Source of the DNA: a virus
Strand: one strand, 5' to 3'
Length of the DNA: 45,497 nucleotides
Virus genome (UHGV): UHGV-0106598
Both the position numbers and the translations under genes were made by a program. The notes below the pieces were generated by a model. The model saw only the letters and a program-made list of their open reading frames with translations, made no database searches and was not told the DNA's origin. Below, in pieces: positions 2,327 to 32,265 of the stretch. The stretch's first letter is position 1. Each line of letters begins with the position of its first letter.

Positions 2327-4539
2327 GCGGTTTGCTCCTGTGCAGCGGTGAGGGCGGCGAGGCGTTCAGTTTTGATGTCGGTGATACGGCGCAGGCGCGA
2401 TCCCAGATACGATGAATATTCTTTATCGCCTTTGGCTTCTGCTGCTTTTCGGTGTACATCCACTTCGCGGGCGATGAGGCCAAATACCTTGTTTACTTCG
2501 TTGGTGGTTACCGCGGCGGCCAGCGTATTGGCAACGTTGATCAGCTTCTCATCCAGTTCCTTACGAAGACGGGTAGCATCTTCCGCATTCTCGCTGGCAT
2601 TCTTGATATCAAACTCAGCTTTATTCCTCTGGCGGTATTCCGGATTGTCGTACAGGCCCATGAAAATATCGGCGCTGAATCCGAGAGGGGATAGCGCTTT
2701 CTTAACAGCATCCGTCCAGGATTTCTTCGGCGCTTCGCCGTCGCTTGTTGGTCCATGTTTAGTATCGTAGATGTACGGAGTGCAACCGTAAGCCGCAGAC
2801 TCGCCGCGCACCCCATTCAATATGTACCAGACTCTCACTTTCATGGTGTGGTGCATTTCACATAGGTACCCGCCAACACCGTCGTGAATCAGATCCCATT
2901 CTATTTTTTCACCAACCTGTTTTTTGCGAACTATCGGTGCGCCTTTATCAAAGCGCTCCTCCAGCACCTCTACACCCCAGCCAATACCAAACGGCCCAAA
3001 TTCGCGAGTCGCTTTCATCGCTATATAAGTGCCGTTGATGGATGTGCCGCCGCCATTCTGAGAGAAAGCACTGGTGAAGCGCTCATCGGTTTTGAATACG
3101 TTCTTCCACAATGCCAGATTATCCGTGTCGTCGGAGTCCTTTAACTCCGTTTCGATAGCTGAGATTGCATTCTGCCGCTTGTGCTCTTCGGTATGGATCC
3201 GCTCAACCAGCGCGTCAACGTTCTGCACCAGATCCTTTACCTGCTCGCTAAGTTTTTCTTGTGGAGGAGTCTCTTCTGCCGGGGTAATAGCTGCAGGTTC
3301 CCTCTGTGATACGGCGTTATTTTCAGGTACGTCATACACATGGCGAGGCGTGACAAACTGCTCACGCAACTGCTGCAAACTACGTTCTCCAGCATTTGCT
3401 GCTTCGCTTTTTTCGCCCTGATTTGAGGGTGTTTCTGACATCATCCCATCAATTGAGAATCGTCCGCCGCCGTGGTTGGTGACTTTTACATCATCCTTTG
3501 GTGCTGCTTCCTTTGGCTTCTCTTCAACAGCATTTGCATCACGCTGCCCGTTAGCTTGCAGCCAGTTGTCGATGTGACTGCGCAGGGATTGTGGGAAGTG
3601 GTACGTGTCTTTTGCGGGGGCGCTCTGAATAACACCGAATACTGATGCGCGGTCATAGGCAAGGATCTGATCCGTTGTGCGCAAGGCCATTGACCAGCGT
3701 TTAAAATCTTCCCTGTCCTGACTGATTATTTCGTCTGCCGCTTTCAGGATGCTGGGGGTGATTTTTTCCGGGGCAACAGGTAACAGGGCGCAGGCAATTT
3801 CACGATCCAGTGTGGCGTGAGTCTGTTGGTAAGGACGTGCGGATGCTGTTTGTGGTTTTACCTCCGGCAGCATTTCATCGCGTTTACCGGGATTCTCTAC
3901 CCATTTTTTTATAAATTTGGAGATAGTCCAACTGGTCGGGTTTTGTTCCTGGGTATCGCAACTTGCCAAAATTGCATGTACCAGATTATTCAATCCAGCA
4001 ATATGCATGTACTCAATGGGCTTACACGCTACCATGGCATCGAGGACGATGCGGTTAAACGCGTCAACCTCATCCTCACTGTTAGTATCACTGTTGTCGA
4101 GCATCTCCAGGTATTCACGCGTCTGCGCAAGCAATTCACTGTCGACTTCGTTGGCGTCGTGGCTGAACAGCAGGACGGCGGCGAAGCGTTCACGAGCAGG
4201 CAGTTTCATCAGGTCGTTAACCTGTGCGATATCTGCTGAACCGCTATCTGAATCAGCGGGGGGGTTAACTACCCATTTTTCGCCATCAAAACTGTGTTCT
4301 GTGGCAAACGTCTCATCAAACTCACCGACGCCTGGGCGCGGTTGGCCTGGGGCATCCTCCCAGATTTTAGGTTTGAAATAGTTGTCGCCGTGGTCAGGGT
4401 AGGCTTCCCACAATTTGCCGATGATGATGTTCTCGGCAACTTTTTTGTTAGGGGCGTCGATGGCGATGGCCAGCGCCGGGATCGCACCGTTTTTGAGCGC
4501 GCCTTTTTTCGCTTCTAACAAGCCGTTAAAAATGGTCAT
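2323..4539 (-). CDS. Large recombination protein: about 480-aa N-terminal region of unknown function fused to a C-terminal Rad52-like single-strand annealing domain
   Basis: 738-aa ORF; C-terminal REFGPFGIGWGVEV ... KKSWTDAVKKALSPLGFSADIF ... DNPEY parallels recalled Rad52-family motifs (EMFGYNGW ... TDGLKRAL..FG...DKDY); start preceded by GAGGAAAGACCA-ATG. Confidence 0.6.
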   Translation of the reverse strand: MTIFNGLLEAKKGALKNGAIPALAIAIDAPNKKVAENIIIGKLWEAYPDHGDNYFKPKIWEDAPGQPRPGVGEFDETFATEHSFDGEKWVVNPPADSDSGSADIAQVNDLMKLPARERFAAVLLFSHDANEVDSELLAQTREYLEMLDNSDTNSEDEVDAFNRIVLDAMVACKPIEYMHIAGLNNLVHAILASCDTQEQNPTSWTISKFIKKWVENPGKRDEMLPEVKPQTASARPYQQTHATLDREIACALLPVAPEKITPSILKAADEIISQDREDFKRWSMALRTTDQILAYDRASVFGVIQSAPAKDTYHFPQSLRSHIDNWLQANGQRDANAVEEKPKEAAPKDDVKVTNHGGGRFSIDGMMSETPSNQGEKSEAANAGERSLQQLREQFVTPRHVYDVPENNAVSQREPAAITPAEETPPQEKLSEQVKDLVQNVDALVERIHTEEHKRQNAISAIETELKDSDDTDNLALWKNVFKTDERFTSAFSQNGGGTSINGTYIAMKATREFGPFGIGWGVEVLEERFDKGAPIVRKKQVGEKIEWDLIHDGVGGYLCEMHHTMKVRVWYILNGVRGESAAYGCTPYIYDTKHGPTSDGEAPKKSWTDAVKKALSPLGFSADIFMGLYDNPEYRQRNKAEFDIKNASENAEDATRLRKELDEKLINVANTLAAAVTTNEVNKVFGLIAREVDVHRKAAEAKGDKEYSSYLGSRLRRITDIKTERLAALTAAQEQTA

Positions 4540-4569
4540 TGGTCTTTCCTCATTACAGGTCAGTGGTCT

Positions 4570-4899
4570 TTAGTAGGGGATTTCATCGGTATCTGGCGTG
4601 TATTCGATGCAAAGTAACTGCTGGATTTCGTCATCGATAGCAGCAATACGCTGTTGGGCGTCGGCGACTGTTTTCTGTTTTTGTTCACGCAGTTGCTCGA
4701 CCTGTAAACCGATGATGTCGATTGGCTGGGGCTGGTTGACGGTAATTTCAATTTCGCGGCTTTCCAGAAGGATGTACCTGTCTGGAAAACCTTTAGACAT
4801 ATCAACGGTTGCAACTAAGATTTCCCCAGGACAGAAAGTTGAGGTTGGGAATGCATAATTTACATATAGCTTTACGGGGATAGTGGTGCGCGCTTCCAT
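4570..4899 (-). CDS. Hypothetical protein
   Basis: 109-aa ORF with AAGGAG-like ribosome-binding site 6 nt before the ATG; first clear gene of the leftward early operon. Confidence 0.45.
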   Translation of the reverse strand: MEARTTIPVKLYVNYAFPTSTFCPGEILVATVDMSKGFPDRYILLESREIEITVNQPQPIDIIGLQVEQLREQKQKTVADAQQRIAAIDDEIQQLLCIEYTPDTDEIPY

Positions 4900-5129
4900 A
4901 GCGACTCCTTGGTGATGTATACTCGGGACCGATCAGCGAATATTGATCAGCTTCCATAGCGTCAGTGTCGTTGGTCTTTCCTCATCACAAGTTTGGTCAC
5001 TTGTGATAAATCCGAATGGTTTGGTCGCCGTTCGGGGTAACTGGCCCGCCTTGTGCGGGTCTTTTGCTATCTAAAGGGTGCCGGTTACGTTTCCGGCGTC
5101 GTTATGTTTCCATCACGACCGTACGGGGC

Positions 5130-5183
5130 TGGTCTTTCCTGTTTTGAGCTGGTCAGGCTCATGGTCAACGCTGGTCAGGCGTG
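5130..5183 (-). repeat. Degenerate minus-strand copy of the CCACGCCTGACCAGCGT ... AGGAAAGACC cassette, without ATG or ORF
   Basis: Seen in sequence: reverse complement of 5164-5180 is CCACGCCTGACCAGCGT; AGGAAAGACCAGCC follows about 28 nt downstream on the minus strand. Confidence 0.6.
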
Positions 5184-5749
5184 GTACTTCCTCCGGTCTT
5201 TCCCTGGTGTCACGCTGCGGGTTTGGCCTCTCCTGTTGGGGACTCAGGCACAGCGATAAAACCTGGCTGTGTGAAAAAATGGCCCATCGTGCGGACTGGG
5301 CAAAGACTAAACACAGCAAATTGATGATGGGCGCCCGGAATCGAACCGGGTAACGGGCAGGGAGTTCCCGTTAAACACCTGTTCACCACAACCGGGAGCG
5401 CACTCCGCCATTTCAAAATTTAACGACAAAGCTCAAAGTTGAGTCGATGAAGTGCGCTCTCGTGTTGTAGCCAGGACTCTTCCCTGGTGGTCACACCGTA
5501 TCGCCTTGATGGTGAATCAATCGCTCATACCTGGCTGTGGCTTGCACATTCCGGCTACCTGCTATGGAGACAACGCGTTAAGGCTCCGCTTCCATCCAGA
5601 CCGCTTCGACACATGTGCCATATGCCGGCGAAGTCTTTCCCTCTGTCATCGTACTGGCGCCGACGCGCAAAATTTGGTGCCGTCTTTCCGGCTGTCAGAA
5701 CTTGTTTCTGAACAACTGCCGCTGGGTAAGCGTTGTTGATGGAAGTGAC

Positions 5750-5811
5750 TTTACAATTTGTATTTGTAATGGTCAATGTATTTTTAAAAAATAATTTGTA
5801 GTTAGGGGCAA
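5750..5811. promoter_or_regulatory. OL-like operator/promoter region with repeated TTTGTA motifs
   Basis: Seen in sequence: AATTTGTATTTGTAATGG and ATAATTTGTAGTTA on the far side of the repressor gene, mirroring the motifs in the cI/cro intergenic region. Confidence 0.45.
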
Positions 5812-5895
5812 AAAAATATTCACTGTGTAAAGGTGTTTTTGTGTTAGGGGGAAAGTTGCATGCCAGCAGCGGCTGGCCTGGAAATTTGAACTGAA

Positions 5896-6324
5896 CTATT
5901 TTGTCTGGTTTTTGGCTTCAAGTAGTTCTTTTAGCAGTAGATCGAAGTGCTCTCTTTTTTCTTTTAGCTCATTGATTAGTTTATTTTTTTCGCTCTCAGG
6001 CAGTCCTCTGAATAGTTGCAGTAGAGCCTGTTCTTGTGGGGTTAGTTCTTGATTGTAATTACCGGGGTGTAGCGTGGATTCATCCAAATATTCTCCTTCA
6101 TTCATGAAGAAAAAATGAACAGGGTATCCGGTCACTTTTGCTAGCTTGTCTAATTTATCTTTTCTTGGCGTTACCCCATTACACCATGCCTGAACTGATT
6201 GAGCTGTAACCCCAATATGGCGAGCTAACTCAGATTGAGACCAGCCTAAGTCTTTTAGAATCCGTTGTAGTCGGCTAGCAAAAGCCATGTTTTTCGTTTT
6301 TGTGTTCATACCGTAAGGATACAA
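5896..6324 (-). CDS. Phage repressor, CI-like HTH (XRE-family) DNA-binding protein with no recognisable LexA-like S24 peptidase domain
   Basis: HTH segment GWSQSELARHIGVTAQSVQAWCNG; divergent from a Cro-like gene; C-terminal half is helical/charged, lacking the Ser/Lys peptidase signature. Start codon ambiguous (three candidate Met). Confidence 0.7.
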   Translation of the reverse strand: MYPYGMNTKTKNMAFASRLQRILKDLGWSQSELARHIGVTAQSVQAWCNGVTPRKDKLDKLAKVTGYPVHFFFMNEGEYLDESTLHPGNYNQELTPQEQALLQLFRGLPESEKNKLINELKEKREHFDLLLKELLEAKNQTK

Positions 6325-11048: not shown

Positions 11049-11235
11049 GTGAATTGAAAATACGTCGCAAGGCAATAGCACGCGTTAAAAATCCATTACC
11101 AGTGCCCGCCGAATGCCATTTTTGTGGTGGGAATGTACGGATTGGTACGTATGTATGGTGATTGCGGAGTGACGTAAAACGAATCGTTGTGGGTGTAATA
11201 TCGTCAATATCATTGGTTTCCCGGAGGGAAAGGAC

Positions 11236-11457
11236 ATGTTTGGCGATAAACTGGAGTTACCACGGAACGGGCGGATAGTGCTCTATATTTCAGATTACAA
11301 AGTAACCAGGGCTGAGGTGTTGGAACCGGAAAAACATCTGGTCACGTTACCGGACATTATTGAGTTGTATAAGCGGGTCGGATATGTGGACTTGCATCGC
11401 GATGATGTTCCCGTTGAGTGTATGGAATGTGAACACCGGAGGTTTGAAGTTGATTGA
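11236..11457 (+). CDS. Hypothetical small protein
   Basis: 73-aa ORF with GGAGGGAAAGG upstream of the ATG. Confidence 0.35.
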   Translation: MFGDKLELPRNGRIVLYISDYKVTRAEVLEPEKHLVTLPDIIELYKRVGYVDLHRDDVPVECMECEHRRFEVD

Positions 11458-11667
11458 ATTGACTTAGAAAAAGCCCGGGGCTATAGTTTCCGCGCAGCCG
11501 CAAAATCGGTTGCCGGGATTGCAACCCCGGATATCTAAGTGACGCATAGCCGCGTTAGCGGTTTTTTTATGCGTAAAGTACAGCTACATCTAAATTATGG
11601 TGGGCTGGGCAGGGCCATCGTAAGATGGGCCGGTTTCACTTAGGCCGGTTGTTGCAACCTTGTCCAG

Positions 11668-11710
11668 CTCACCACCCAATGATTGCAACCTGACGGTGGT
11701 GAGTTTTATC
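11668..11710 (+). terminator. Terminator/attenuator-like hairpin (CTCACCACC ... GGTGGTGAG, about 18-nt loop, then TTTTAT) just upstream of the ORF6N-like gene
   Basis: Seen in sequence: perfect 9-bp inverted repeat followed by a T-run; the same intergenic region has repeated TTGCAACC motifs. Confidence 0.45.
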
Positions 11711-11729
11711 ACTAAGTGAGGTCAATATC

Positions 11730-12524
11730 ATGACAACTCAAATTTCCGCACAAACTCTTTCCCCAATCTCTCATCAAAATACGCTTGTCATCACCACCGA
11801 ATTGCTTGCACAACTGTATGGGACTGAACCAGTCCGAATTCGTCAAAACTACTCTCGTAATGAAGGGCGGTTTGTTGAAGGGAGACATTATTTTTTGGTG
11901 GAAGGCGATGAACTACGGGAGTTGAAACGCAAAGTATCTCAAAGCTACTCTGTGAAAATTGCCAAAAATGTACGTACTATCATTCTCTGGACAGAACGCG
12001 GCGCAGCTCGCCATGCCAAAATGCTGGAAACAGAACAGGCCTGGGAAGTTTTCGAAAAGCTTGAAGATTGTTATTTTAGCCAGCGTCCAGAGAGGCGGAG
12101 TACAACTACCGATTACCGTACTCCCTTACGTGATGCCGTTAATATGCTGGTCGGTAAGAAAGGCATGATGTATCCCGATGCCTACACCATGATTCACCAA
12201 CGTTTCGCCGTCTCTCACATAGAACAACTGTCACAGACGCAAATGTTAGAGGCGATTGAATACATCCACTGCCTGCTACTCGATGAAAATCAGCCAACCA
12301 TTCCAGATTTTTCTTTTATCACCACTATCAAAAATGGAAAAGTGACCGGGATGCGCCATGTTGCCAAAGGCGAACATCTGATGACCTTTGACGCTTTCAA
12401 AGAGATCGCTGAGCGGGCAGGGTATCTGGTGATCCACAGCGACAATCTGCGAAGTATGACACTGGATAAATTGATGGTAATGGGGAAAAAGTCGGCTATA
12501 TCCGTTGCTAATTCAGCATTTTGA
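11730..12524 (+). CDS. ORF6N/KilA-N-like domain protein (possible antirepressor-type regulator)
   Basis: N-terminal LVITTELLAQLYGTEPVRIRQNYSRNEGRFVEGRHYF ... ILWTERGAARHAKMLETEQAWEVFEKL resembles the recalled ORF6N pattern; own leader with a hairpin. Confidence 0.45.
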   Translation: MTTQISAQTLSPISHQNTLVITTELLAQLYGTEPVRIRQNYSRNEGRFVEGRHYFLVEGDELRELKRKVSQSYSVKIAKNVRTIILWTERGAARHAKMLETEQAWEVFEKLEDCYFSQRPERRSTTTDYRTPLRDAVNMLVGKKGMMYPDAYTMIHQRFAVSHIEQLSQTQMLEAIEYIHCLLLDENQPTIPDFSFITTIKNGKVTGMRHVAKGEHLMTFDAFKEIAERAGYLVIHSDNLRSMTLDKLMVMGKKSAISVANSAF

Positions 12525-12903
12525 CAGGTTGTTTGGGGCGGAAATACTCTATTTGCGCTTAGGATACTTGTTAGCTACTTCCACTTTTGTCACAAAGCGG
12601 ACTATCTGGCTGAGCTGAGGGTCCGCAGTGAGTGAGGATCGAATATTTAAGCGTCGGTACTGATGACGGATTTGAGGTATTTAAAATATTACAGGAGCTA
12701 GTGTGGATGTGACAGACATAAAAGTGGATGCAGTCAGAAAAGATATATGTATAGCAGGCTTCTTCGAGGACTAGATCAATCAATAAGATTTAGATAAAAT
12801 TGCAGTGTTAAATAAAAAGACTAGTAGTATTTAAACTTTAAGTGCGTTAGTAAAGTCGTGCAATTATATAAAACTAACGTTTTCTGAATGTTTGGAGAGT
12901 AAA

Positions 12904-13599
12904 ATGTTAGAACCGCCAAAGAATTATAATGAAATGTTACCCATGCTCCATAAGGCAACTTTTATTACTACATTTATATTTTACCTATCATTGGTTATTT
13001 ATGGCTACATACCATTGGTTGGCATTAATGCCAAGTACATTCCACCAATCAAAGACTACGAAGAATTTATTAAGTGGATATTAACATTCGGCATATTACC
13101 AATTGCATTCTCAATTTTTTGGTCTGTGATTAGTGGGGCTTTAGATCTACATAATAACGTGGCAAAAATTCTTGGAATAAGAAAAGCATGGGATAATTAC
13201 TTGATTGTTAAACCATTGGCGCAAGTTGCAGGCATTACAAGAAAATTAACTAGTGATGAATCCTCCAAAGTAATGAACAAACTGTATTACCCAGAAGTTA
13301 ATGAGTTAAAAGATAAACATTATGTTGAGCTCTTCTGGAATAAGGTTTATTACTTTTGGGTTTTCTTTGAACATACTGTGATTGCATTTATTACTGTTTT
13401 AGTAATAAGTTTTGCTAAAATAACCCATTTACTCTCTGTAACCGGTTCTTTAAAAAATCTTTGGTTGTGGGTTATTTTTATTGTTGTCTTTAATTTTCTT
13501 ATTTTTATTGCATCCGTTAAACCCAGAACTGAAGGCCAAGTCAGACAAATACCTGATGATAAGATAAAGGAATTTTTTAATAATAACAGTATTTTTTAA
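12904..13599 (+). CDS. Integral membrane protein (about 4 predicted transmembrane helices), unknown function
   Basis: GGAGAG ribosome-binding site before the ATG at 12904 (track ORF starts at an upstream non-ATG codon); four long hydrophobic segments; AT-rich codon usage; stop adjacent to the next gene's ATG. Confidence 0.5.
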   Translation: MLEPPKNYNEMLPMLHKATFITTFIFYLSLVIYGYIPLVGINAKYIPPIKDYEEFIKWILTFGILPIAFSIFWSVISGALDLHNNVAKILGIRKAWDNYLIVKPLAQVAGITRKLTSDESSKVMNKLYYPEVNELKDKHYVELFWNKVYYFWVFFEHTVIAFITVLVISFAKITHLLSVTGSLKNLWLWVIFIVVFNFLIFIASVKPRTEGQVRQIPDDKIKEFFNNNSIF

Positions 13600-14265
13600 A
13601 TGAGGTTAGTTTTGAATTACAAAATAAATGGAATGACTATACGTTCAGAAAATGCAGCAAAACCGCATACTATGCCATCTAACTATCTCTGTAACCATAT
13701 TGAAAATTCTGTTAAAAATGGCATGGCCCTTGATTTCGGATGTGGAAAGCTTAGATATTCAGAACAATTAGTAAATAAATTTGAAGCTGTGACATTTTTA
13801 GATTCCAGAAAACAGTTAGAAAGAGTGCAAATTATCAGAGGCGTACAAACCACAATTCCAGAGTATGTGGCTAATAATTATAAAAATGCTAATGTTGTCC
13901 CTTTTGAAAGTATAGATAAAATAAAAGATAATTATGATTTCATACTTTGCGCAAACGTGCTTTCCGCAATTCCATGCAAATCAACAATTTACAAAATCAT
14001 CAATGAGATTGGGAGATTATTAAAAAATGATGGTGAAGCAATTATTGTTAATCAATACAAAAGCTCTTATTTCAAAAAGTATGAGACTGGAATTAAACAT
14101 TTGCATGGATATATATACCAAAACTCTCGCAATGCTTTCTATTATGGCTTATTGGATGAGAATATTGTAAGTAAAATTTGCTTAGATAACAATTTAGCAG
14201 TAATAAAGTCATGGAGCAAAGCTGGCAGTTCATATGTGGTTGTTGGTAAAAATAAACATAATTAG
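13600..14265 (+). CDS. Class I SAM-dependent methyltransferase-like protein (small-molecule/RNA/protein type, not a typical DNA methyltransferase)
   Basis: Motif I LDFGCGKL, acidic residue about 17 aa later (FLDS), motif DFILCANVLSAIP; no DPPY/NPPY-type DNA methyltransferase motif seen. Confidence 0.5.
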   Translation: MRLVLNYKINGMTIRSENAAKPHTMPSNYLCNHIENSVKNGMALDFGCGKLRYSEQLVNKFEAVTFLDSRKQLERVQIIRGVQTTIPEYVANNYKNANVVPFESIDKIKDNYDFILCANVLSAIPCKSTIYKIINEIGRLLKNDGEAIIVNQYKSSYFKKYETGIKHLHGYIYQNSRNAFYYGLLDENIVSKICLDNNLAVIKSWSKAGSSYVVVGKNKHN

Positions 14266-14592
14266 TAAATTTAAAAATAATATTAGAGGGTGCCATTTTC
14301 TTATTACTTATTAACTCGCTGGGGTAGGGGCAACACGCCCCACCTCATCAAGTTACTGCAGGATTATAGACTTTTGTCAAAACGTTGGAAAAATTCAGTA
14401 CAAACTTTTCCATGTTTTTCCTAATCATAGATAATGATGCTCACTTATGTTAACAACTTCTTGTACATAACGGTCTTCTTCAACAGGACAGCTATAAGTG
14501 AAGAAATAAAGTCGATAAACAATAAAGAGGCTCCAAATAAATATTATTCAATGAAGCCTGCTGTTTATTATTTGTTATTATTAAATCGCTAC

Positions 14593-15492
14593 TTATAATT
14601 CAACAATTTTTAGTATTATATCAATATTATTTAGCCTTGCAATCTCTGATGAATCGTTTGCAATTTTATCTTTTAAATTATCAATGTTAATCATATCTTC
14701 AGAGCTAATACAAACCATATCACCTTGGTTAACTTTTGATTTGTTCACTATGGCTTGAATAACAGACAGATCGTCCATTACACCTCTCAGGAATTTAACC
14801 ATGCTTTGATCCTTGAAATCAGATATCGATTTTGAACGTTGCTTACGTTGGATTGTTCCTTTTGTAATTATTTCGTTAATTTCTTTTAAACCGGCAAGCA
14901 TATCAGATATGCTTCCTTCGCAACTCATCCTGTGTTTAATAGCATTGCGATTAATAACATTGAGTATTATTTCGAGTGAATCTCTATCATCCCATGGCGA
15001 TAATAATGTATAATCCTGATGGCGATGAATGGCATCAAGCATATCAAGGATCATATTTTCATCTGCTTTATCGCAAAGTTCATTTACAAAATAGCTGGGG
15101 TCGATTACTTTACAATAACTTGGAACTGAGCATTTTGAGCTTTTACAAAACCCAAAAATATATAAAAAAGGGTATATGTCTTTTAGACTCTTTCCTGATT
15201 TATTTTCTTTTTCAAAGGCTGCGATTGTTTTTTTAATTTTTGCCGGGGTTGCTTTCGTTGTAACTTGAACTGCTATCATGTTTTTATTGTCAGCTAAATC
15301 AATGGCGGGAAAGTTAACTTTAATCTGATTCATGTTTTCCAGTCCCCCCATTTTCAGTGCGCGAAACATATAAATGGTCAATGACTCAATCATTCTTTCC
15401 ATGTCATGAAAGCCAGTCTGTTTGCGTTGTTCGATATAAAGCTGAAGTAGCGCAATATCTTTCTGTAAGTTACTAATAACTGGGGCAATCAT
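14593..15492 (-). CDS. Hypothetical protein with an Rx4H (HEPN-like) motif; candidate abortive-infection-type RNase
   Basis: 299-aa ORF with AAGGA ribosome-binding site; RNAIKH at residues 182-187; N-terminal NFPAIDLADNKNMIAVQVTT region resembles what I recall of SMEK-type N-terminal domains (tentative). Confidence 0.45.
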   Translation of the reverse strand: MIAPVISNLQKDIALLQLYIEQRKQTGFHDMERMIESLTIYMFRALKMGGLENMNQIKVNFPAIDLADNKNMIAVQVTTKATPAKIKKTIAAFEKENKSGKSLKDIYPFLYIFGFCKSSKCSVPSYCKVIDPSYFVNELCDKADENMILDMLDAIHRHQDYTLLSPWDDRDSLEIILNVINRNAIKHRMSCEGSISDMLAGLKEINEIITKGTIQRKQRSKSISDFKDQSMVKFLRGVMDDLSVIQAIVNKSKVNQGDMVCISSEDMINIDNLKDKIANDSSEIARLNNIDIILKIVEL

Positions 15493-16025
15493 AGCTAATA
15501 ATCCTTTTCAATTAAGTAGGGGATGTGTTTGAGCTTCTTTATTTGACTGTTAGTTTAATTTCTTGTTTTCATATTAACAAGCTCTACAATTTTATCAAGA
15601 TTTCTCAAAAACTAATCCTCCGTGTAAATCCACTAACTATGCTGAATTTATTCCGCTGTAAAACATGTCCGCTCATGGCTGTGAGTTCAACGGGTCGATG
15701 CAACGCCATCCACTCAGTAAAATTGTGTAATTCCAGTGAGCAGGCGAATCTTCAGTATGCTCTAGTTTCTTACTCACACCTGCTTATGCTTTAACTAGGT
15801 ACAATGTAGATAAACTCTCATGTTGATTTATCGCCATGATCACATTTCCGGAAGAAAAATTTTGTTTGTAACCTTGCTAGATGAGACAGTATAGATATCA
15901 TTACATATGAAACAGTACATTAGGGAACACTGAAGGCCGTAACTTTAAAAAATATAATTAATTGTACATAATTTTATAACAATCAAGATGGTGGCAATTA
16001 TATAAGTAATAATAAGGGGTGATTA

Positions 16026-17378
16026 ATGATTAAATTCACAGAAAAGGAAATACAAAATTACATATGGGAAAATAGGAACAATTTTCCCGAACTGCTTATT
16101 GAACCTGCAGGTCTTGAAGTACTTGAATTCAACGAAGATCTCTCTGATGTAACAGCACAACTGCTAATAAAAAACAGAATAAATAGTAAACTATCCAATC
16201 TTCACTCTAAGCTTTATGGACTGGAATTTATCGGCTGCGAAGTTCCTTTAGAACAAAATTCAAACTCAACAATTAGAGCCGATTTTTTGGCTATATTCTG
16301 TGATGATACTGGGCTTGCTGTCATAGAGCTTAAAAAAAGTGAACAAACTGAAAGGCAAGCATTCACTGAATTGTTAGCATATTCAAACCATATGACAACA
16401 TTATTTCCATCCATGACGAAAAATGACAGTGTGTATATTTTAATATCACCAATGGAAACCAGAATAGCACGTGATGCTGTCATCCAAAGTTTAATATTTG
16501 ACAATAGGGATATCATTGCTTTAATTCCAACATTCTCTGATCCTCTTGATATTACCTCTCTTAAACTTGAATTATGGATTCCAGACCAAACAGAGTTAGC
16601 GACTTTCTCAAATATTGCATTTAGAGAAGATAATTTTAGTGTCTGTAAATTATCCTGGGAGTATGACGCAGAGCGATGGGATGCAGCTAGAGGAGAAGAA
16701 CTTTTACATTCATTTGTTAGTCAATTTGATAACATTTCCTGCCTTGCAGCTCAGTATATGGAAGAATCTGGAGTTCATGGTTTTACTTATTGCTCTCAGT
16801 TATGGCCTGAATTATCTCAGGCATTACCTTTTACGAATTCATTAGTACTAGTTGGCATGAATCCTTATGCTGTCGGGAGTGTCCAGCATTTATCCACAGA
16901 AGACGACAACTATGATGATATTCCAGACCCAAATTCTTACACTCCTCACATATCTGAATTAATTGGTAAACTAGGTGAAGGAGAACTATATGAGGCTAAT
17001 ATTGATGTCCTAAGTGGTTTACATTGTACATGGATCTCTCAATTATATCGTATAGGTAAGCAGGTAATTGAACTCACCACTAGAAATACAGATGGGAAAT
17101 ACGTCCACGTTGAATATGGCTTTATGAATTGGGAAATCTATCAAAGGTCTCTACTTGAGGATGTTTTCTGTAATAACTTCGCTATTAGGTCTACAGGTTT
17201 AATACGACATCTCTATACTGACATTCTTAAATTAGATTATGATTTTTGTAAGAATAACGGATTGGAAAACCACCCTCTTCATGGAGACATGCCATACTTA
17301 GGCGTCAATTTCCTTAAATCCCACCAGCACTTTAGAAAATTTATTTTGCGAATGTTCTATGCCGAAATAGATGCGTAG
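16026..17378 (+). CDS. Hypothetical protein with N-terminal PD-(D/E)xK-like nuclease motif and about 340-aa C-terminal region of unknown function
   Basis: 450-aa ORF with AAGGGGTGA ribosome-binding site; E72 ... D86 ... E101-L-K103 in IRADFLAIFCDDTGLAVIELKK fits the restriction-endonuclease-like fold motif. Confidence 0.4.
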   Translation: MIKFTEKEIQNYIWENRNNFPELLIEPAGLEVLEFNEDLSDVTAQLLIKNRINSKLSNLHSKLYGLEFIGCEVPLEQNSNSTIRADFLAIFCDDTGLAVIELKKSEQTERQAFTELLAYSNHMTTLFPSMTKNDSVYILISPMETRIARDAVIQSLIFDNRDIIALIPTFSDPLDITSLKLELWIPDQTELATFSNIAFREDNFSVCKLSWEYDAERWDAARGEELLHSFVSQFDNISCLAAQYMEESGVHGFTYCSQLWPELSQALPFTNSLVLVGMNPYAVGSVQHLSTEDDNYDDIPDPNSYTPHISELIGKLGEGELYEANIDVLSGLHCTWISQLYRIGKQVIELTTRNTDGKYVHVEYGFMNWEIYQRSLLEDVFCNNFAIRSTGLIRHLYTDILKLDYDFCKNNGLENHPLHGDMPYLGVNFLKSHQHFRKFILRMFYAEIDA

Positions 17379-18107
17379 TGAGATTTTTTAATTTATCTCT
17401 GCTGGAGAAAATTCATGGGTGAGGAAAGAGATAGATAATATTGAAAATAAAATCTTCAAAAGATGTGGAAATAAAAACATGATCTAAATTTTTTTGGCAT
17501 TCATTTCATATGAAACAGTCCTTCTAAAAAACTATACAGGCATGGATGATATTTTTTATGATTTTTTAGTTGTAATTTATCTTTACTATATAATATATGG
17601 GGGGATTGTCGCCAGCTATTCACCGACTATCAAATATCAATAACTCCTGGCTGTTCTGTAAGGTATAGACATACAAATCGGCCTGAAGATTACGGATAGT
17701 TTCTTAAGGTCCGTTCCTGGCACAAAGTGGACTGTCAAATTAAATTCGGCTCCACGCCATAGATGTGTCAGCTCATATCTTATCTAATACACACAATAAT
17801 TCTCTCATTCTTAGAGAATTATTCTTTTTAGGCTAGATGTTGACGTTAGAACAAAAGAATAGATATTTTTGATATTTATTACATTGGAGCTAAAGTACCG
17901 CCCATGTACAACTGGAGCGTTTGCTGATGGTATCGCATTATCTTGCAGAGGACGCACGCAGGTTAAATAAAACAAGCATATGTGCCTGGTTTTTGTAATA
18001 TTGGGTATAACATATGCTTTATAGGGGCGAGCTCAATGACCAACCGAGAAAGAATCTCCTGCCAGATACAGTTATTTTCACCCTCTCCATAACATAAGGG
18101 AGTTTTT

Positions 18108-18656
18108 ATGTCGGAAGTGAGTATCGTAGAAGACGACCCACGGCCAGTAGTCGCCGAATTGGCAGATCTGTTACAAGCACGACCATTTCATCAGAATCAA
18201 TATGATAACTTATGTCGCTTTATGATTTATTTTTCCTTGGCTGAATCAAAATTAACATCAATGGCTGCTGGCCTTGGTGGAACTGACGCACTGGCACAGG
18301 AACTAGTTGTGCATAACGGTATGGACAGTCAGGCCATAGATGATTGCTATCGTTATTTTATACGACGCTATCGAGACAGCCCTGATAGCGATTACCGCTT
18401 CAATAAACTAGCCCCACCTGAGTATGTTAAGAATGCAATCAGAGGACGCTTTGTTACGCTACTTCAGATACAGTCTCCAACAATTGAAGATAAAATCAGC
18501 TTTGTGTTCAAAGTGATTTTTAGGTTACGGCATAATCTTTTCCATGGAGAAAAATGGTCTTACAACCTTGAAGACCAGGAAGCTAATTTTTCACATGCTA
18601 ACAATGTACTACTATCCTGTTTGACTCTTACTCGCGGGAATATGTGGCACCCTTGA
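18108..18656 (+). CDS. Hypothetical protein with Rx4H motif (possible HEPN-like)
   Basis: 182-aa ORF with strong AAGGGAG ribosome-binding site; RHNLFH at residues 141-146. Confidence 0.4.
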   Translation: MSEVSIVEDDPRPVVAELADLLQARPFHQNQYDNLCRFMIYFSLAESKLTSMAAGLGGTDALAQELVVHNGMDSQAIDDCYRYFIRRYRDSPDSDYRFNKLAPPEYVKNAIRGRFVTLLQIQSPTIEDKISFVFKVIFRLRHNLFHGEKWSYNLEDQEANFSHANNVLLSCLTLTRGNMWHP

Positions 18657-19013
18657 ATCCTGGATGGATATTACGCATCGTCTGATAAGGGGTATCCAGA
18701 TGTGGCTTGCAAAGAATTCCTTAGCATGCCTGTTATCGTAGAGGCGATCCTGCGCAAGCAGCCAGCGGAGTACCTGCATCTAGCGCAGACCAGTTGCACT
18801 CAAACCGACTTCATTATCAAACACTATTATTTTTAGCGACTACTTACTACATCTAGTGGTAGTCGAAATATAATAACCTGCATATAGTGATTTTCGTTGT
18901 TTAAGTGCTTGACAATTCTGCACATGGCATTTAACGGTGTCTGTGGTAAACTATCCACAGAATAGTAAACAGTGTTGGATTGTGGATAATCGTCGGATAT
19001 ATGGGGAGGATAA

Positions 19014-19208
19014 ATGGCTAAATATGAACTTCGACCACTGTCAGATAGCCGTAAGGCTGACATTGCTCGCAGTGCATTAGCACAAAATAGAGCCCCTGCT
19101 AAGCCTGCTGTTTCAATGTCTTCTGGCTCGGCTTCAATACAGAGATCACGAGATACTGCGCGAGTAATGATGGATCGTGCATTCAGGACAGTTGTAGCCA
19201 AAGGATAA
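19014..19208 (+). CDS. Hypothetical small protein
   Basis: 64-aa ORF with GGAGG ribosome-binding site and a clean terminator directly downstream; DnaA-box-like sequences upstream. Confidence 0.45.
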   Translation: MAKYELRPLSDSRKADIARSALAQNRAPAKPAVSMSSGSASIQRSRDTARVMMDRAFRTVVAKG

Positions 19209-19227
19209 TTTTACTTTAGTTGATTAA

Positions 19228-19252
19228 AGCGCCTTTTTCTGGCGCTTTTTTA
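19228..19252 (+). terminator. Rho-independent terminator (AGCGCC-TTTTTCT-GGCGCT followed by TTTTT)
   Basis: Seen in sequence, just after the stop of the 64-aa gene. Confidence 0.6.
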
Positions 19253-19267
19253 TTGCGGATAAACCAA

Positions 19268-19948
19268 ATGGAAAAGCTCTGGGTTTTTACTCAATTAGTT
19301 ACAGGGAAAGATGACACCTCTGGCTTTTTGGCTTACTCGCTTTATAAGCACGACAAAAATGAATATGCCGAGAAGTTGCGCAGTAGTGGCGAATATACAG
19401 AAGACTATATTAACGCCCAACTGAAGATCTTTCATGAGCAGACAGTTAACTCGCCAGGCCGAATTGAGTCTTACAAAGAAAAAGCAGAAGACATCGTCAC
19501 AAACTTAACAGACCAGATAGATGCTGACATCCGGCTTGAGTACGATGCACAGTTAGCCGGTGCTAACTTGCAGGATGTTGAAATAGAACGGCTGAAAGCA
19601 GAAATACAGGCTATGAAAGCATCACGTGAGAACGAGTTAAGGAAGGCTGGAGAGGATGCTATTCTCAATTTTCATCGCATGGTTGAAATCACCCAGGCAC
19701 GCAAACGTGGGCGCGTTTCCCGCTCGTTAGGATGGTACTGGAATGGGTTTGCCAGCATTTTCGCCACAATAACCTTCGCTGTTATTGTCTATGGTATTTG
19801 TACTTGGGCATTACCACAAAAATCCAGAGACGACATTGTGGATGGGGCGTTTAAAAATCTGCAGGGATCGTTATTCCAGCAGCCAAACATTCAGTTTAAT
19901 AAAGACAAAAATGAGAACGCTCAGCAACCTAACACAATTGCCGAATAG
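19268..19948 (+). CDS. Hypothetical membrane-anchored protein (coiled-coil region plus one C-terminal transmembrane segment)
   Basis: Start taken at the internal Met (MEKLW) because the upstream part of the track ORF overlaps the terminator; hydrophobic segment FASIFATITFAVIVYGICTWAL. Confidence 0.4.
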   Translation: MEKLWVFTQLVTGKDDTSGFLAYSLYKHDKNEYAEKLRSSGEYTEDYINAQLKIFHEQTVNSPGRIESYKEKAEDIVTNLTDQIDADIRLEYDAQLAGANLQDVEIERLKAEIQAMKASRENELRKAGEDAILNFHRMVEITQARKRGRVSRSLGWYWNGFASIFATITFAVIVYGICTWALPQKSRDDIVDGAFKNLQGSLFQQPNIQFNKDKNENAQQPNTIAE

Positions 19949-27732: not shown

Positions 27733-27965
27733 TGACGTCGCGCGAGGTTTTAACAGAACGACTGCTGGAAGCGGAAATCGCTCTGCACAAATTATTAACG
27801 GGTAAATCGACCGTGTCGCTGTCTCACGGCGATTCAGCAGGAAATAACCGGAGCTATCAATACTCGCAGGCGAGTATTGAGCAGCTCCGAACGTACATTA
27901 TCGAGCTGAAATCACAGCTCGGTCTGAGTACGGGACGCCGTCGGCCCGTGGGAGTTCGATTATGA
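27732..27965 (+). CDS. Head-tail joining protein, lambda gpW-like
   Basis: 77-aa ORF; LHKLLTGKSTVSL ... EQLRTYIIELKSQLGLSTGRRRPVG parallels recalled lambda W. Confidence 0.8.
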   Translation: MTSREVLTERLLEAEIALHKLLTGKSTVSLSHGDSAGNNRSYQYSQASIEQLRTYIIELKSQLGLSTGRRRPVGVRL

Positions 27966-29536
27966 CTGCTCCGCAGCAGCTGCTCGGGCCTGACGGTAAA
28001 ACGCCACTACGCCGTTACGCGGGGTATAACGGCGGCGGTCCCGGTTTCGGTGGCCAGCTGATTGACTGGAACGCACCACAGCAGAGCGCCGACGCAGCAC
28101 TGTTGCCGAATTTTTATCGCGGTAACGCGCGAGCAGACGATCTCGTTCGCAATAACGGCGTCGCGTCGAACGCCGTGCAGCTGCACCAGGATCATATCGT
28201 CGGCAATCTGTTTAAGTTGAGTTATCGCCCTAACTGGCGTTACCTCGGCATATCTCGCGAGGACGCCAGGGCGCTGGCGCGTGACGTCGAGGTAGCGTGG
28301 ACTGAATACGCCGAGGACCCTCACTGCACGATTGATATCGAGCGGAAACGGACGTTCACAATGATGATCCGCGAGGGCGTGGCTACTCACGCTTTCAACG
28401 GTGAAACCTGCGTACAACCAGTCTGGGAGAGTAGTGCCGGCAGCGTTTTTCGGACGCGATTCAAAATGGTCTCACCGAAACGGATTCGAAATCCGGGTTA
28501 CGCAGCTGACACTCAATTTCGCCGCGCCGGTGTTGATATCGATAAAAACGGGGCCGCGGTCGGGTACTGGATAGCCGAGGATACTTACCCTCTCGGCGGA
28601 GTCGGTAAATGCCGGCGTATCCCAGCATAGCTCAGCAGCGGCAGACACGCATTCATCCACATATTCGAGCCGCTCGAGGACGGACAGACCCGCGGGGACA
28701 ATATTTTTTACAGCGTCATGGAGCGCCTGAAAATGCTCGACACACTGCAGCAAACACAACTGCAGAGCGCCATTGTGAAGGCGATGTATGCCGCGACAAT
28801 CGAATCAGAGCTCGACAGCCAGCAGGCGTTTGAATATATCGCCGGCGCGGGTACTGATATCGACTCGAACCCGCTGAATTCGTTTATTCAGAGTTACGTG
28901 ACGTACTACAACGGCGCAAATATCAAGCTCGGTGGTGTGAAAGTTCCCCACCTGCATCCCGGCGACAAACTCAGTTTACAGACCGCTCAGAATGCTGATG
29001 CTGGTTTTAGTTCACTGGAAAAATCACTCCTGCGTTACGTTGCAGCTGGCGTTGGCGCGTCATACGAAGAACTTAGCCGGGACTACAGCCAGGTCAGTTA
29101 CTCCAGCGCCCGGGCCAGTGCTAACGTCAGCTGGCGATTTTTCATGGGGCGTCGACGTTTTATCGCCGCGCGACAGGCGTCGCTGATGTTCTGCTGCTGG
29201 TTTGAAGAGGCGCTGGCACGCGGAATTATCACCCTGCCACGCTCAGCTGTCCGGTCGTTTTATGAGGCGCGGAACTCCTGGACGAACGCGCTCTGGATCG
29301 GCGCTGGTCGCATGGCGATTGATGGGCTGAAAGAGGTTCAGGAGAGCGCCATGCGCATCACAACTGGCCTCAGCACGTATCAGAACGAACTGGCGCTGCA
29401 GGGACAGGATTACGAGGAGGTTATGGAGCAGCAGGAATACGAAATTCAGCGCCGGCGTGAAATGGGGCTGAGCGAACCGTCATGGTCTGTATCTCACCCC
29501 TCAAATACCAACGATAACGGCTGGGGAGGTAACTGA
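27962..29536 (+). pseudogene. Portal protein gene (lambda gpB-like) interrupted by one in-frame TAG at 28628-28630
   Basis: Track ORFs 27962-28630 and 28718-29536 are in the same frame; translation right after the TAG continues LSSGRHAFIHIFEPLEDGQTRGDNIFYSVMERLKMLDTLQ, matching recalled lambda gpB (FIHVFEPVEDGQTRGANVFYSVMEQMKMLDTLQ) with no other stop. Confidence 0.85.
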
Positions 29537-30843
29537 TGCCGTGGAACAATTTTCCGCACCTCGCCGCCAGGGCGTTCAATCAACCGCTTTTGCTGGAGCC
29601 CACCTACGCGCGGGTATTTTTTTCGGCGCTGAGCGACCGGTTCGGTACCGGGCGACTGATTGATACAGCGTCTGGAGAGGTAATGAACAGCGACGAAATG
29701 AACGCGCTCGCGATGGGGTGGGACAGCAGCGAGCGAACACGCCAGAAATCGTATCGCGTGGAGCGTGGTATAGCCGTTCTGCCGGTTACCGGGACGCTGG
29801 TTCATAAATTGGGTTATATCAACCCAGTTAGCGGGATGAGCGGTTACGACGGAATCGCAAAACGCCTGCAGCAGGCGATTTCTGATCCCGATGTAAGAGG
29901 GGTCCTGCTTGATATTGACTCCCCTGGCGGTGAAGTCGCCGGCGCGTTTGATACTGCTGATTTAATCGCCCGGGCGCGAGAGCAAAAACCTGTGTGGGCG
30001 CTGGCCAGCGATACGGCCTGCAGCGCTGCCTATTTGCTGGCGTCAGCGTGTTCGCGCCGGCTGATAACGCAGACAGGCACAGTTGGTTCAATCGGTGTCC
30101 TGATGGCTCACCGCTGCGTCGAAAAAGCGCTGGAGATTGCTGGCGTCGACGTGACGCTGATTTACGCCGGCGCGCACAAAGTTGACGGGAACCCGTATTC
30201 CCAGCTGCCAGGCGACGTTCGCGACGAATTCCAGCTGAGTATTAACAGCACGCGCGAGCAGTTCGCGCAAAAAGTCTCGGATTATACCGGGCTGAAAAAA
30301 TCCAGGGTGCTGGCCACGGAAGCTGCAGTATTTATCGGCGCGGACGCGATTAAATCTGGTCTCGCTGATCAACTCGTTAATTACGCGGACGCTATCGCAG
30401 TGATGGCCGACGCACTGAAACCAAAAATGGAGCGCTTTATGTCTGGTACAGAAACCACGGCGGAGACCACGACCACAGAACAAACCGCGACCACGACTAC
30501 TGTCGCGCAGGTTGAGTTTAACACGGAGCAGATTCGCGCGGACGCCGCATCAAGCGAACTGGCGCGTGTGATGGCCATCATCAATTGTCCCGAAGCTGTT
30601 GGGCGCGAGGCGCAGGCAAAAGCGCTCGCTGGCGTCCCCGGGATGACGGTCGGGCAGGCGCAGGTAGTCCTCGCTGCAGCACCTAAAACGGCGCAGGCGC
30701 GGACAGAAACGGCGCTCGATACACTAATGAGCACTGAATCACCAGCGACTATTCAGGATGCTGGCAGTACTACGGCAACAGGAACAACCGCAAACGTCTC
30801 GATGCTGGTTGCTGCAGGGCGTTCAATTTTAGGGGATGAATAA
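29536..30843 (+). CDS. Head maturation protease / scaffold (lambda gpC-like, S49/ClpP-type peptidase)
   Basis: 435-aa ORF after the portal gene; peptidase-like core (LLDIDSPGGEV ... SAAYLLASAC); lambda head gene order. Confidence 0.8.
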   Translation: MPWNNFPHLAARAFNQPLLLEPTYARVFFSALSDRFGTGRLIDTASGEVMNSDEMNALAMGWDSSERTRQKSYRVERGIAVLPVTGTLVHKLGYINPVSGMSGYDGIAKRLQQAISDPDVRGVLLDIDSPGGEVAGAFDTADLIARAREQKPVWALASDTACSAAYLLASACSRRLITQTGTVGSIGVLMAHRCVEKALEIAGVDVTLIYAGAHKVDGNPYSQLPGDVRDEFQLSINSTREQFAQKVSDYTGLKKSRVLATEAAVFIGADAIKSGLADQLVNYADAIAVMADALKPKMERFMSGTETTAETTTTEQTATTTTVAQVEFNTEQIRADAASSELARVMAIINCPEAVGREAQAKALAGVPGMTVGQAQVVLAAAPKTAQARTETALDTLMSTESPATIQDAGSTTATGTTANVSMLVAAGRSILGDE

Positions 30844-31172
30844 TGACTACAGAAACGTATAGCCCGGACGATTTTATTCTTGGGCCTGACCTTGTTGTCA
30901 CGACCGTCGGTCATTTTCAGGGCGGGATCAACGTACCCCGGCTGACACCGATTATGCTCGACGCTACTGTCGGGACGTTTAAGGTTTGGGACGGCTCAGT
31001 CGGTAAAGCTATTGGCCTCACTGCCACCGCAGTTAATACTGGCTCCAGTTCTGCAGACTGCTCGTACTATAAATCAGGCTCGTTCCGTTACACGGCGATT
31101 AACTGGGGTACGGTTACCGACGTAGCTAAACGCAAATCAGCATTTGCGGGTACGCCGATCAGCGTCGGCTGA
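30843..31172 (+). CDS. Head decoration protein, lambda gpD-like
   Basis: 109-aa ORF; MLDATVGTFKVWDG ... YYKSGSFRY ... KRKSAFAGTPISV parallels recalled lambda D. Confidence 0.8.
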   Translation: MTTETYSPDDFILGPDLVVTTVGHFQGGINVPRLTPIMLDATVGTFKVWDGSVGKAIGLTATAVNTGSSSADCSYYKSGSFRYTAINWGTVTDVAKRKSAFAGTPISVG

Positions 31173-31191
31173 TAGCAAAAAACTCAAAACA

Positions 31192-31214
31192 AGCCGCCTC
31201 CGGGCGGTTTTTTT
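31192..31214 (+). terminator. Rho-independent terminator-like hairpin (GCCGCC-TCCG-GGCGG followed by TTTTTTT) between the decoration and major capsid genes
   Basis: Seen in sequence. Confidence 0.55.
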
Positions 31215-31230
31215 ATAACAGGATATATAA

Positions 31231-32265
31231 ATGAGCGATTCGTTTACTACGTCAGAACTGATTACCGCGACACAGCAGGTATTTAAGTTCAATCCGTTGT
31301 TTTTAAAGCTGTTTTTCCGTGAGACCTACACGTTTACGAGCGAAGAGGTTTTTCTGGATAAAATCCCGGGAAAAGTGAACATGGCCGTGTACTGCGCGCC
31401 GATGATCACCGGCAAAGTTGACCGCACTCGCGGCTATTCAACGAACCATTTCAAACCGGGTTACACGAAACCCAAGCACACGATCAATCCGAATATGAGC
31501 ATCAAGCGCGCAGCCGGTGAGCAGATTGGCCAGCCGGAAACGCCGGTCGAACGTCGTGCAAAAATCATCATGCAGAACCTGCTTGATGAGGAACTGAGCA
31601 TCAGCCAGCTCGAAGAGTTCCAGGCGGTACAGGCTGTTCTGTACGGTAAATACACTGTTTCCGGCAGCAATATCGAGACATATGAGATCGACATGAGCCG
31701 CAGCGCGACGAATAACGTCACTCAGTCCGGTTCGACAGCCTGGTCGACTCAGGACGCGGAAACGTATGACCCGAGCGACGATATTGAATCCTACGCGGAC
31801 CTCGCCTCCGGTGCGGTTAACGTGATCATCATGGATGGTAAAGCCTGGAAGCAGTTGAAGCGTTTTAAAAAATTCTGGACGGCACTGGATACGCGCCGTG
31901 GCTCAAACAGCCAGCTCGAGGTCGCGCTGAAAAACCTGGGCGACGTTGTCAGCTTTAAAGGCTACTACGGCGACACTGCGCTGTTTGTCTACAAAGGGCA
32001 ATACCTCGACCCGGTAACAGATACTGAAACGCGTTATATGCCGGATAACACGATGATCCTTGGCAACACAAAAAACCGCGGGCTCCGCACTTATGGCGCA
32101 ATTCAGGACGAAGACGCGCTGAAAGAGGGTATTTCCGAAGCGACGCGCTATCCAAAAGTCTGGACCACTACCGGTGATCCGGCAGTGACGCAAACAATGA
32201 CGCAATCCGCGCCAGCAATGGTCCTCACGGACGCCGACGCGTTCGTTGTCGTAAAAATCGCGTAA
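31231..32265 (+). CDS. Major capsid protein, lambda gpE-like
   Basis: 344-aa ORF aligning along its length with recalled lambda E (FKFNPLFLKLFFRE ... KPKH ... DTRRGSNSQLE ... GLRTYGAIQD ... RYPKVWTTTGDP). Confidence 0.9.
   Translation: MSDSFTTSELITATQQVFKFNPLFLKLFFRETYTFTSEEVFLDKIPGKVNMAVYCAPMITGKVDRTRGYSTNHFKPGYTKPKHTINPNMSIKRAAGEQIGQPETPVERRAKIIMQNLLDEELSISQLEEFQAVQAVLYGKYTVSGSNIETYEIDMSRSATNNVTQSGSTAWSTQDAETYDPSDDIESYADLASGAVNVIIMDGKAWKQLKRFKKFWTALDTRRGSNSQLEVALKNLGDVVSFKGYYGDTALFVYKGQYLDPVTDTETRYMPDNTMILGNTKNRGLRTYGAIQDEDALKEGISEATRYPKVWTTTGDPAVTQTMTQSAPAMVLTDADAFVVVKIA

Follow-up and report, generated by a model that had tools for sequence, protein, structure and literature searches.

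Gene content and setting of the locus

The window, which is the whole 45,497-nucleotide stretch of UHGV virus genome UHGV-0106598, is identical to the chromosome in Escherichia coli EC28 and in three further complete genomes. At positions 18108–18656 of the + strand it contains an open reading frame that starts with ATG and encodes a protein of 182 aa. PGAP calls a gene with the same ends (WP_097478787.1) and labels the product 'hypothetical protein'; the call is also supported by homologues of 182 aa, by dN/dS and by an AlphaFold2 model. A preliminary description made from the sequence alone had pointed to RHNLFH at residues 141–146 of this protein and to a strong ribosome-binding site; the reading frame and its coordinates are confirmed, and a Shine-Dalgarno sequence (AGGGAG, 18097–18102, + strand) can be read 5 nt before the ATG. 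The codons for R141-H142-N143-L144-F145-H146, a putative catalytic Rx4H motif, are at 18528–18545 (+ strand) with G147 and K149 next, and the codon for E46, an invariant acidic residue in an N-terminal helix (residues 29–48), is at 18243–18245 (+ strand). Ten close homologues, each of 182 aa, are found in E. coli, Klebsiella and Enterobacter with 59–99% identity, and among the enterobacterial copies dN/dS is 0.05–0.2, at saturated dS. These comparisons show that the gene is real and under purifying selection.

The prophage carrying the gene is integrated beside a tRNA-Leu gene of the tRNA cluster adjoining pgsA/uvrC. Its early genes are lambdoid (repressor-like HTH genes, YdaT, RepO and a replicative helicase, followed by DUF1367, DUF1364, Q and lysis genes), and its baseplate and sheath genes are P2-like. 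Flanked by the replication genes on one side and the nin/Q region on the other, the 182-aa gene has the same orientation as the early-right genes. Four more E. coli genomes carry the gene and the block downstream of it at 96–97% identity, giving a total of 8 of 5426. Comparison with a sister prophage in ETEC1738 reveals a swapped 6.8-kb cassette at about 11065–17892 of the window; here the cassette has a G+C content of 30–35% and encodes an ORF6N-domain protein, a 235-aa ORF, a SAM methyltransferase, a SMEK-domain protein and a 450-aa protein, and in ETEC1738 (L002 4411–10000) an IS3 element and a DUF262 gene pair are present instead. The shared backbone resumes at 17893; the 182-aa gene lies 215 nt beyond the right end of the island and hence belongs to the backbone. 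The preliminary placement at the right edge of an island is therefore accurate as to position, but the gene is outside the swapped cassette.

The G+C content climbs from the 30–35% of the island to 40–44% over the 182-aa gene. A promoter scan 5' of the gene returned candidates no more numerous than in shuffled sequence. A short G+C-rich hairpin with T-runs on either side, resembling a bidirectional terminator, is located at 17973–17988, 120 nt 5' of the gene start, where it would cut the gene off from the candidate promoters at 17840–17896.

The region downstream of the 182-aa gene

The 611-bp stretch 3' of the 182-aa gene appears intergenic but is in part a decayed gene, and not one for a toxin partner. 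The remnant of a gene for DNA polymerase III theta (HolE/HOT-like), lacking the N-terminus, occupies 18699–18770 on the + strand (PF06440, E = 3.2e-4, model positions 23–46 of 70, below the gathering score). The Enterobacter orthologue is followed by an intact 85-aa theta homologue, and the 'MPVI.E' start is also seen in a 56-aa ORF after the Klebsiella orthologue, where theta is truncated. Since theta is intact in Enterobacter and decayed here and in Klebsiella, the 182-aa gene was kept while its old neighbour decayed. Nucleotide similarity to the Klebsiella, Enterobacter and other E. coli prophages starts no more than about 25 nt before the ATG, includes the Shine-Dalgarno site and stops at the stop codon, and the neighbours of the orthologues differ in each lineage.

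Beyond the relic is an orphan ORF for a basic 64-aa product (19014–19208, + strand), preceded by GGAGG and left without annotation by PGAP. A terminator scan places an intrinsic-terminator-like hairpin with an 8-bp stem (five G-C pairs) and a following T-run at 19226–19248 (+ strand), in agreement with the statement that the small gene has its own terminator. Other gene finders call the ORF, always in a 450-182-64-226 context. It is restricted to the eight E. coli genomes carrying the whole block, has no tblastn match in the phage collection, and is not beside any other family member in 150 or more loci. The proposal that it encodes a partner of the 182-aa protein accordingly fails: it is 357 nt away behind the decayed theta gene, confined to one lineage and absent next to other members. 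Further downstream, 19268–19948 (+ strand) encodes a 226-aa protein (phrog_25194) whose single hydrophobic helix is C-terminal; outside this prophage lineage it is not linked to the 182-aa gene, and it was not next to any other family member in the loci examined. No conserved partner of the 182-aa gene was found in enterobacteria. An RNA antitoxin or other non-coding RNA was considered and rejected, with no Rfam match, no tandem repeats and flanks unconserved between lineages, and the flanking repeat array or conserved non-coding RNA characteristic of type III toxin-antitoxin or AbiF-like systems is absent.

A large family with an invariant Arg/His motif

An Rx4H motif arises in 36% of 20,000 shuffles of the 182-aa protein, such that the motif alone is not beyond chance and the finding depends on conservation and context. 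It is the conservation that goes beyond chance. In an alignment (A2) of 110 relatives collected with HMMER, which has a mean column identity of 21%, E46, R141, H146 and K149 are invariant, F38, F84, R87, Y88, R139, N143, F145, G147, Q157 and N160 are nearly so, and the consensus around the motif is Y-R-L-R-N-N-L-F-H-G-x-K-W. In a larger set of 240 distinct sequences, to which the added loci contribute no independent evidence on the motif because they were retrieved by the motif pattern, R141, H146 and K149 remain invariant and E46 is present in 236; residue 142 is Asn in 218 and His in 21. Together with E46, R87, Y88 and Q157, the motif R-[N/H]-N-L-F-H-G-x-K makes up a polar set, invariant or at least 98% conserved, as expected of an active site.

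A HMMER search of 1.84 billion cluster representatives identified 563 relatives at E ≤ 1e-3, almost all of them single-domain proteins of 160–180 aa. The family thus comprises at least 563 clusters at 50% identity, with members in 285 species genomes and 66 viral contigs (IMG/VR). The 285 species-level genomes are mostly of Alpha-, Beta- and Gammaproteobacteria, with scattered members in Acidobacteriota, Gemmatimonas, Anaerolineales, Kuenenia, Bacillota and cyanobacterial MAGs. Longer relatives (196–271 aa) were considered as candidates for fused domains, but their N-terminal extensions look like over-extended starts or low-complexity sequence. Where relatives are named, the label is 'hypothetical protein', and precomputed Pfam domains are lacking for all of them; searches of Pfam, NCBIfam and PADLOC with the 182-aa protein, and of Pfam with the 110 relatives, found no HEPN family or other recurring family, and the PHROGs matches of the 182-aa protein are to families of unknown function only (phrog_27260 and phrog_19013). 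In PADLOC-DB 2.0 the 182-aa protein matches no known or candidate system, and only neighbours of its distant relatives do. A literature search found no paper describing the family. The family is uncatalogued in Pfam, NCBIfam and PADLOC. Prophage-borne HEPN-type abortive-infection nucleases are well known as a kind.

Probable relationship to the HEPN superfamily

The AlphaFold2 model, built from a deep alignment, has a pLDDT of 94 and a pTM of 0.89, and predicts a single all-helical domain. By predicted secondary structure the motif is at the C-terminal end of the penultimate helix (residues 126–145), followed by a loop (146–157) and the last helix (158–175), and extra helices (74–120) separate the N-terminal helices from the motif helix. 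HEPN domains are recognised by a conserved Rx4-6H motif in which the Arg is directly followed by a polar N, D or H (Anantharaman et al. 2013, PMC3710099); in the 182-aa family four residues separate R and H, and N or H follows R. The HEPN core is an all-alpha bundle that tolerates inserts between helices 2 and 3 and has the motif at the end of helix 3 or the start of the loop to helix 4 (PMC3710099), and on the predicted secondary structure the motif of the 182-aa protein appears to be placed in the same way. [quoted passage not shown] This could be E46, which is invariant in the 110-sequence alignment but has the context E-S-K-L-T and not Ex3[KR].

Pfam HEPN-clan models have no matches to the query or the 110 relatives at either E ≤ 0.01 or E ≤ 1, searches of PDB sequences with the protein and with a family profile returned nothing relevant, structural matches are weak, and a Foldseek search of the model against the PDB gave no result. 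An hhalign comparison of the family with the DUF4145 (HEPN) subfamily built from a neighbouring IMG/VR gene gave a probability of 0.09. The lack of an HMM link weakens the HEPN assignment without excluding it, because HEPN families often cannot be linked by sequence. Taking these observations together, we consider membership of the HEPN superfamily probable, with confidence somewhat above even. The suggestion that the protein may be a HEPN-like effector or toxin is partly supported: the motif invariance and the HEPN-like motif placement speak for it, the missing profile match speaks against it, and the pairing with a 64-aa partner is rejected.

Genomic company of the family

To identify possible partners we clustered ORFs within 3.5 kb of family members by BLAST and phmmer at 80 genome loci, and inspected 63 viral loci. 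There is no universal neighbour in these 80 genome and 63 viral loci, and only small sub-clusters are seen. On IMG/VR prophage contigs the family gene is mostly solo, and in 27 of the 63 viral loci ninB follows it after 139–200 nt (one ninB variant matches PF05772 at 1e-45, and the other falls just under the cut-off). In phage lambda the slot before ninB is the position of ren, a classic accessory slot.

In approximately ten viral loci a gene for a DUF4145 (HEPN-family) protein is located upstream of the family gene. In L150, L152, L154–L159 and similar IMG/VR loci (about 3782–5918) the order is a 250-aa DUF4145 gene, a 160-aa family member and ninB, with two HEPN-type genes adjacent; in L158 and L159 the upstream counterpart is a 205-aa gene, putatively of the DUF4145 kind.

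About one quarter of the chromosomal loci have a tightly coupled neighbour on the same strand. ATPases of 863–1030 aa (AAA_13/AAA_21/SMC_N) are upstream in 8 of 51, often within 12 nt or overlapping; other upstream neighbours are a HerA-type ATPase, a GHKL ATPase, CAP12-type TIR proteins and T5orf172/MUG113 nuclease-like proteins. Some neighbours match the PADLOC models PDC-S06 (E = 3e-233) or PDC-S35, or AriA/LmuB-like ATPase models. On the downstream side, three loci have Piwi-domain proteins, in the order AAA_13 ATPase, family member and pAgo with gaps of 8–12 nt, and OLD-type and type I restriction genes also occur. Such a pattern is that of a defence-island gene able to act alone or coupled to varied sensors.

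Several individual loci merit mention. PDC-S06 and PDC-S35 are 'single-gene' candidates, and their matches lie immediately upstream of family members in L036, L042, L047 and L063 and in L014, L024 and L027; the matching proteins are likely the 993–1030-aa ATPases and the CAP12-type TIR proteins, and these candidates may really be two-gene systems. The operon with a pAgo (L010 3330–8657, L015 and L033) encodes an 863-aa AAA_13/AAA_21 ATPase, a 174-aa family member and a 730-aa Piwi-domain pAgo, separated by 8 and 12 nt, and is found in MAGs of a Gemmatimonas sp., an Acidobacteriota bacterium and an alphaproteobacterium. In L147 a 153-aa ORF (5415–5876) directly 3' of the family member has an R-N-R-L-N-H motif of its own and no Pfam match, and may encode another uncatalogued HEPN-like protein.

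Comparison with known RNases and abortive infection systems

HepS of Gifsy-1 is the closest functional precedent. This Salmonella prophage protein (STM14_3211, PDB 9OIJ/9OIK) is non-toxic when overexpressed and forms a tetramer in which the R100/H105 sites are occluded; the sites are opened by the tail-tip protein J, and anticodon loops are then cut (PMC13043305). HepS and the 182-aa family are alike in being single-domain, in having an R-N-x3-H motif and in being often prophage-borne, and the 182-aa gene shares the HepS-like trait of standing alone, without a conserved partner, in an accessory slot of a lambdoid prophage. The likeness is one of function and not of family membership: no sequence homology of the family to STM14_3211/9OIJ was detected, and the 182-aa family would therefore be an independent one doing the same kind of job. 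Tha of Staphylococcus aureus prophages is a HEPN-domain defence switched on by a phage structural protein (PMC11087260). It too is prophage-encoded, but it belongs to another host clade and has no detected similarity to the 182-aa protein.

Minimal HEPN proteins of HEPN/MNT modules (HepT; 1wwp, 1jog, 2hsb, 5yep, 7ae2 and 8xdj) differ in several respects. Neither in the window nor at the homologous loci does the 182-aa gene have an MNT nucleotidyltransferase neighbour, and the protein lacks the Tyr two residues past the His (the sequence is H-G-E-K-W), has no Pfam HEPN/DUF86 match, and has additional helices of about 50 residues located between its N-terminal helices and the helix that bears the motif.

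The anticodon nucleases PrrC and RloC, and RemAIN (an ABC-type ATPase with a HEPN nuclease), resemble those chromosomal members that are directly 3' of 863–1030-aa AAA_13/AAA_21/SMC_N ATPases; AAA_13 is the Pfam family covering RloC-type ATPases. In the family loci, however, the nuclease-like module is a separate, unfused polypeptide, the E. coli copy has no ATPase neighbour, and no relationship in sequence with the nuclease domain of PrrC or RloC was detected. The lactococcal and clostridial single-gene HEPN Abi proteins (AbiD/AbiF Abi_2, AbiV, AbiU2 and AbiJ) share the logic of stand-alone HEPN abortive infection, and the family pattern R-N-x3-H-x3-W resembles the Abi_2 motif. None of the 110 members matches Pfam Abi_2, HEPN_AbiV, HEPN_AbiU2 or related models, though, and in comparison with Abi_2 proteins the 182-aa protein is about half the size and has no flanking RNA element or repeat array.

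Proposed function and alternative explanations

The invariant Arg/His motif and the genomic company suggest an RNA-cutting anti-phage protein. By analogy with the systems above, we propose that the 182-aa gene encodes a stand-alone HEPN-type, metal-independent endoribonuclease of an unnamed family, carried as accessory cargo by a lambdoid-type E. coli prophage and acting, from a latent state, in abortive infection; we regard this proposal as evenly poised between right and wrong. By this analogy, drawn from Gifsy-1 HepS, Tha, PrrC/RloC and HepT, the protein would form a homo-oligomer with a composite Arg/His site that is closed at rest, and because of this closure the cell would tolerate it in the absence of an antitoxin. 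Opening of the site would be brought about by a component of an infecting phage, a role that in other bacteria may fall to a neighbouring NTPase, TIR or pAgo sensor. The opened enzyme would cut RNA, with tRNA anticodon loops the likeliest target, and cleavage would stop translation and abort the infection.

The alternative raised by the preliminary description is a toxin-antitoxin pair, in which the 64-aa product (19014–19208) neutralises the 182-aa protein, a HEPN toxin with constitutive activity. The small ORF has a strong GGAGG and its own terminator, is intact whether the copy of the block is 100% or 96% identical, and is called by other gene finders; but its distance from the 182-aa gene behind the theta relic, its confinement to the eight genomes with the whole block, the lack of a homologue in the phage collection, the absence of tandem repeats that might hint at an RNA antitoxin, and the survival of intact orthologues (59–69% identity) amid entirely different neighbours leave this reading barely credible. 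A two-component module with the 226-aa membrane-anchored protein (19268–19948), in which an RNase sensor or effector is combined with a membrane effector as in Cas13b/Csx28, would account for the presence of both genes in exactly the same eight complete E. coli genomes and for the pair staying together when the upstream cassette swaps. Their co-occurrence, however, is accounted for by a single shared 6-kb block of about 92% identity, a terminator-like hairpin is situated between the two genes, and the 226-aa protein, which has its own phage family (phrog_25194), is missing at all other family loci; we consider such a module very unlikely.

The protein might instead be an RNase of the phage lytic cycle, expressed from the early rightward operon and not in the lysogen, and serving in shut-off of host mRNA or tRNA or in transcript processing. 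The early-right orientation of the gene, its location between the replication genes and Q, the lack of a strong promoter of its own and the position just upstream of ninB in the delayed-early operon of many prophages are all consistent with this, whereas most family members are chromosomal, in defence-type neighbourhoods outside phages, and otherwise similar prophages carry the gene rarely and patchily (8 of 5426 E. coli genomes), a distribution typical of accessory cargo rather than core lytic functions; we view a lytic role as quite unlikely. An appreciable but still minor chance attaches to a non-catalytic helical protein whose conserved polar residues bind a ligand, nucleic acid or partner, making it a regulator, adaptor, immunity or anti-defence factor. 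No sequence-level tie to any nuclease family was found and structural matches are weak, some HEPN domains are only binding domains (PMC3710099), and adjacency to many ATPases, TIR proteins and pAgo also fits a shared regulatory subunit. Against this, invariant Arg, His and Lys with a near-invariant Glu, in an R-N-x3-H context across 240 sequences, are typical of catalytic sites, and solo occurrence in prophages argues against an obligate subunit.

Returning to the proposed latent RNase, the genomic company raises the broader possibility that the family is a free-standing 'plug-in' RNase effector, solo in lambdoid prophages and elsewhere the missing second component of PDC-S06, PDC-S35, the HerA/GHKL-ATPase pairs and the operon of AAA_13 ATPase, family member and pAgo. 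We offer this tentatively and consider it somewhat doubtful; were it true, one new nuclease family would define a set of multi-gene systems with interchangeable sensors. With its tight linkage to several kinds of ATPase, TIR proteins and pAgo, the family provides a natural experiment in how one effector is wired to different sensors. If the proposal for the E. coli protein is right, it would provide a second, sequence-unrelated case of the HepS principle, that of a lone, normally silent prophage RNase needing no antitoxin. Because Pfam, NCBIfam and PADLOC miss the family, it goes uncounted in current censuses of defence systems, and the annotation 'hypothetical protein' can be replaced by a testable function.

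Other features of the prophage

The SMEK-domain protein of the cassette (14593–15492, − strand) contains RNAIKH at residues 182–187 and is probably the 'first' Rx4H protein implied by the preliminary description, in which the 182-aa protein was the second. The 450-aa cassette protein has weak HSDR_N/REase matches. PGAP annotates the portal protein gene as a pseudogene with an internal stop (30563–32137 in the EC28 prophage, L001, corresponding to about 27960–29540 of the window), and the prophage may therefore be defective.

Because the cassette is exchanged for an IS3 element and a DUF262 pair in ETEC1738, its site (about 11065–17892) resembles a hotspot for defence cargo. A non-coding sequence of about 110–180 nt (17709–17891) lies at the cassette's right border and recurs, unannotated, at about 88% identity in roughly 400 E. 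coli genomes. ETEC1738 has copies of it at L002 4670–4779 and 9752–9842, near both ends of the replaced cassette and in one case about 260 bp inside the left border, and the sequence may act as a recombination linker for cassette exchange.
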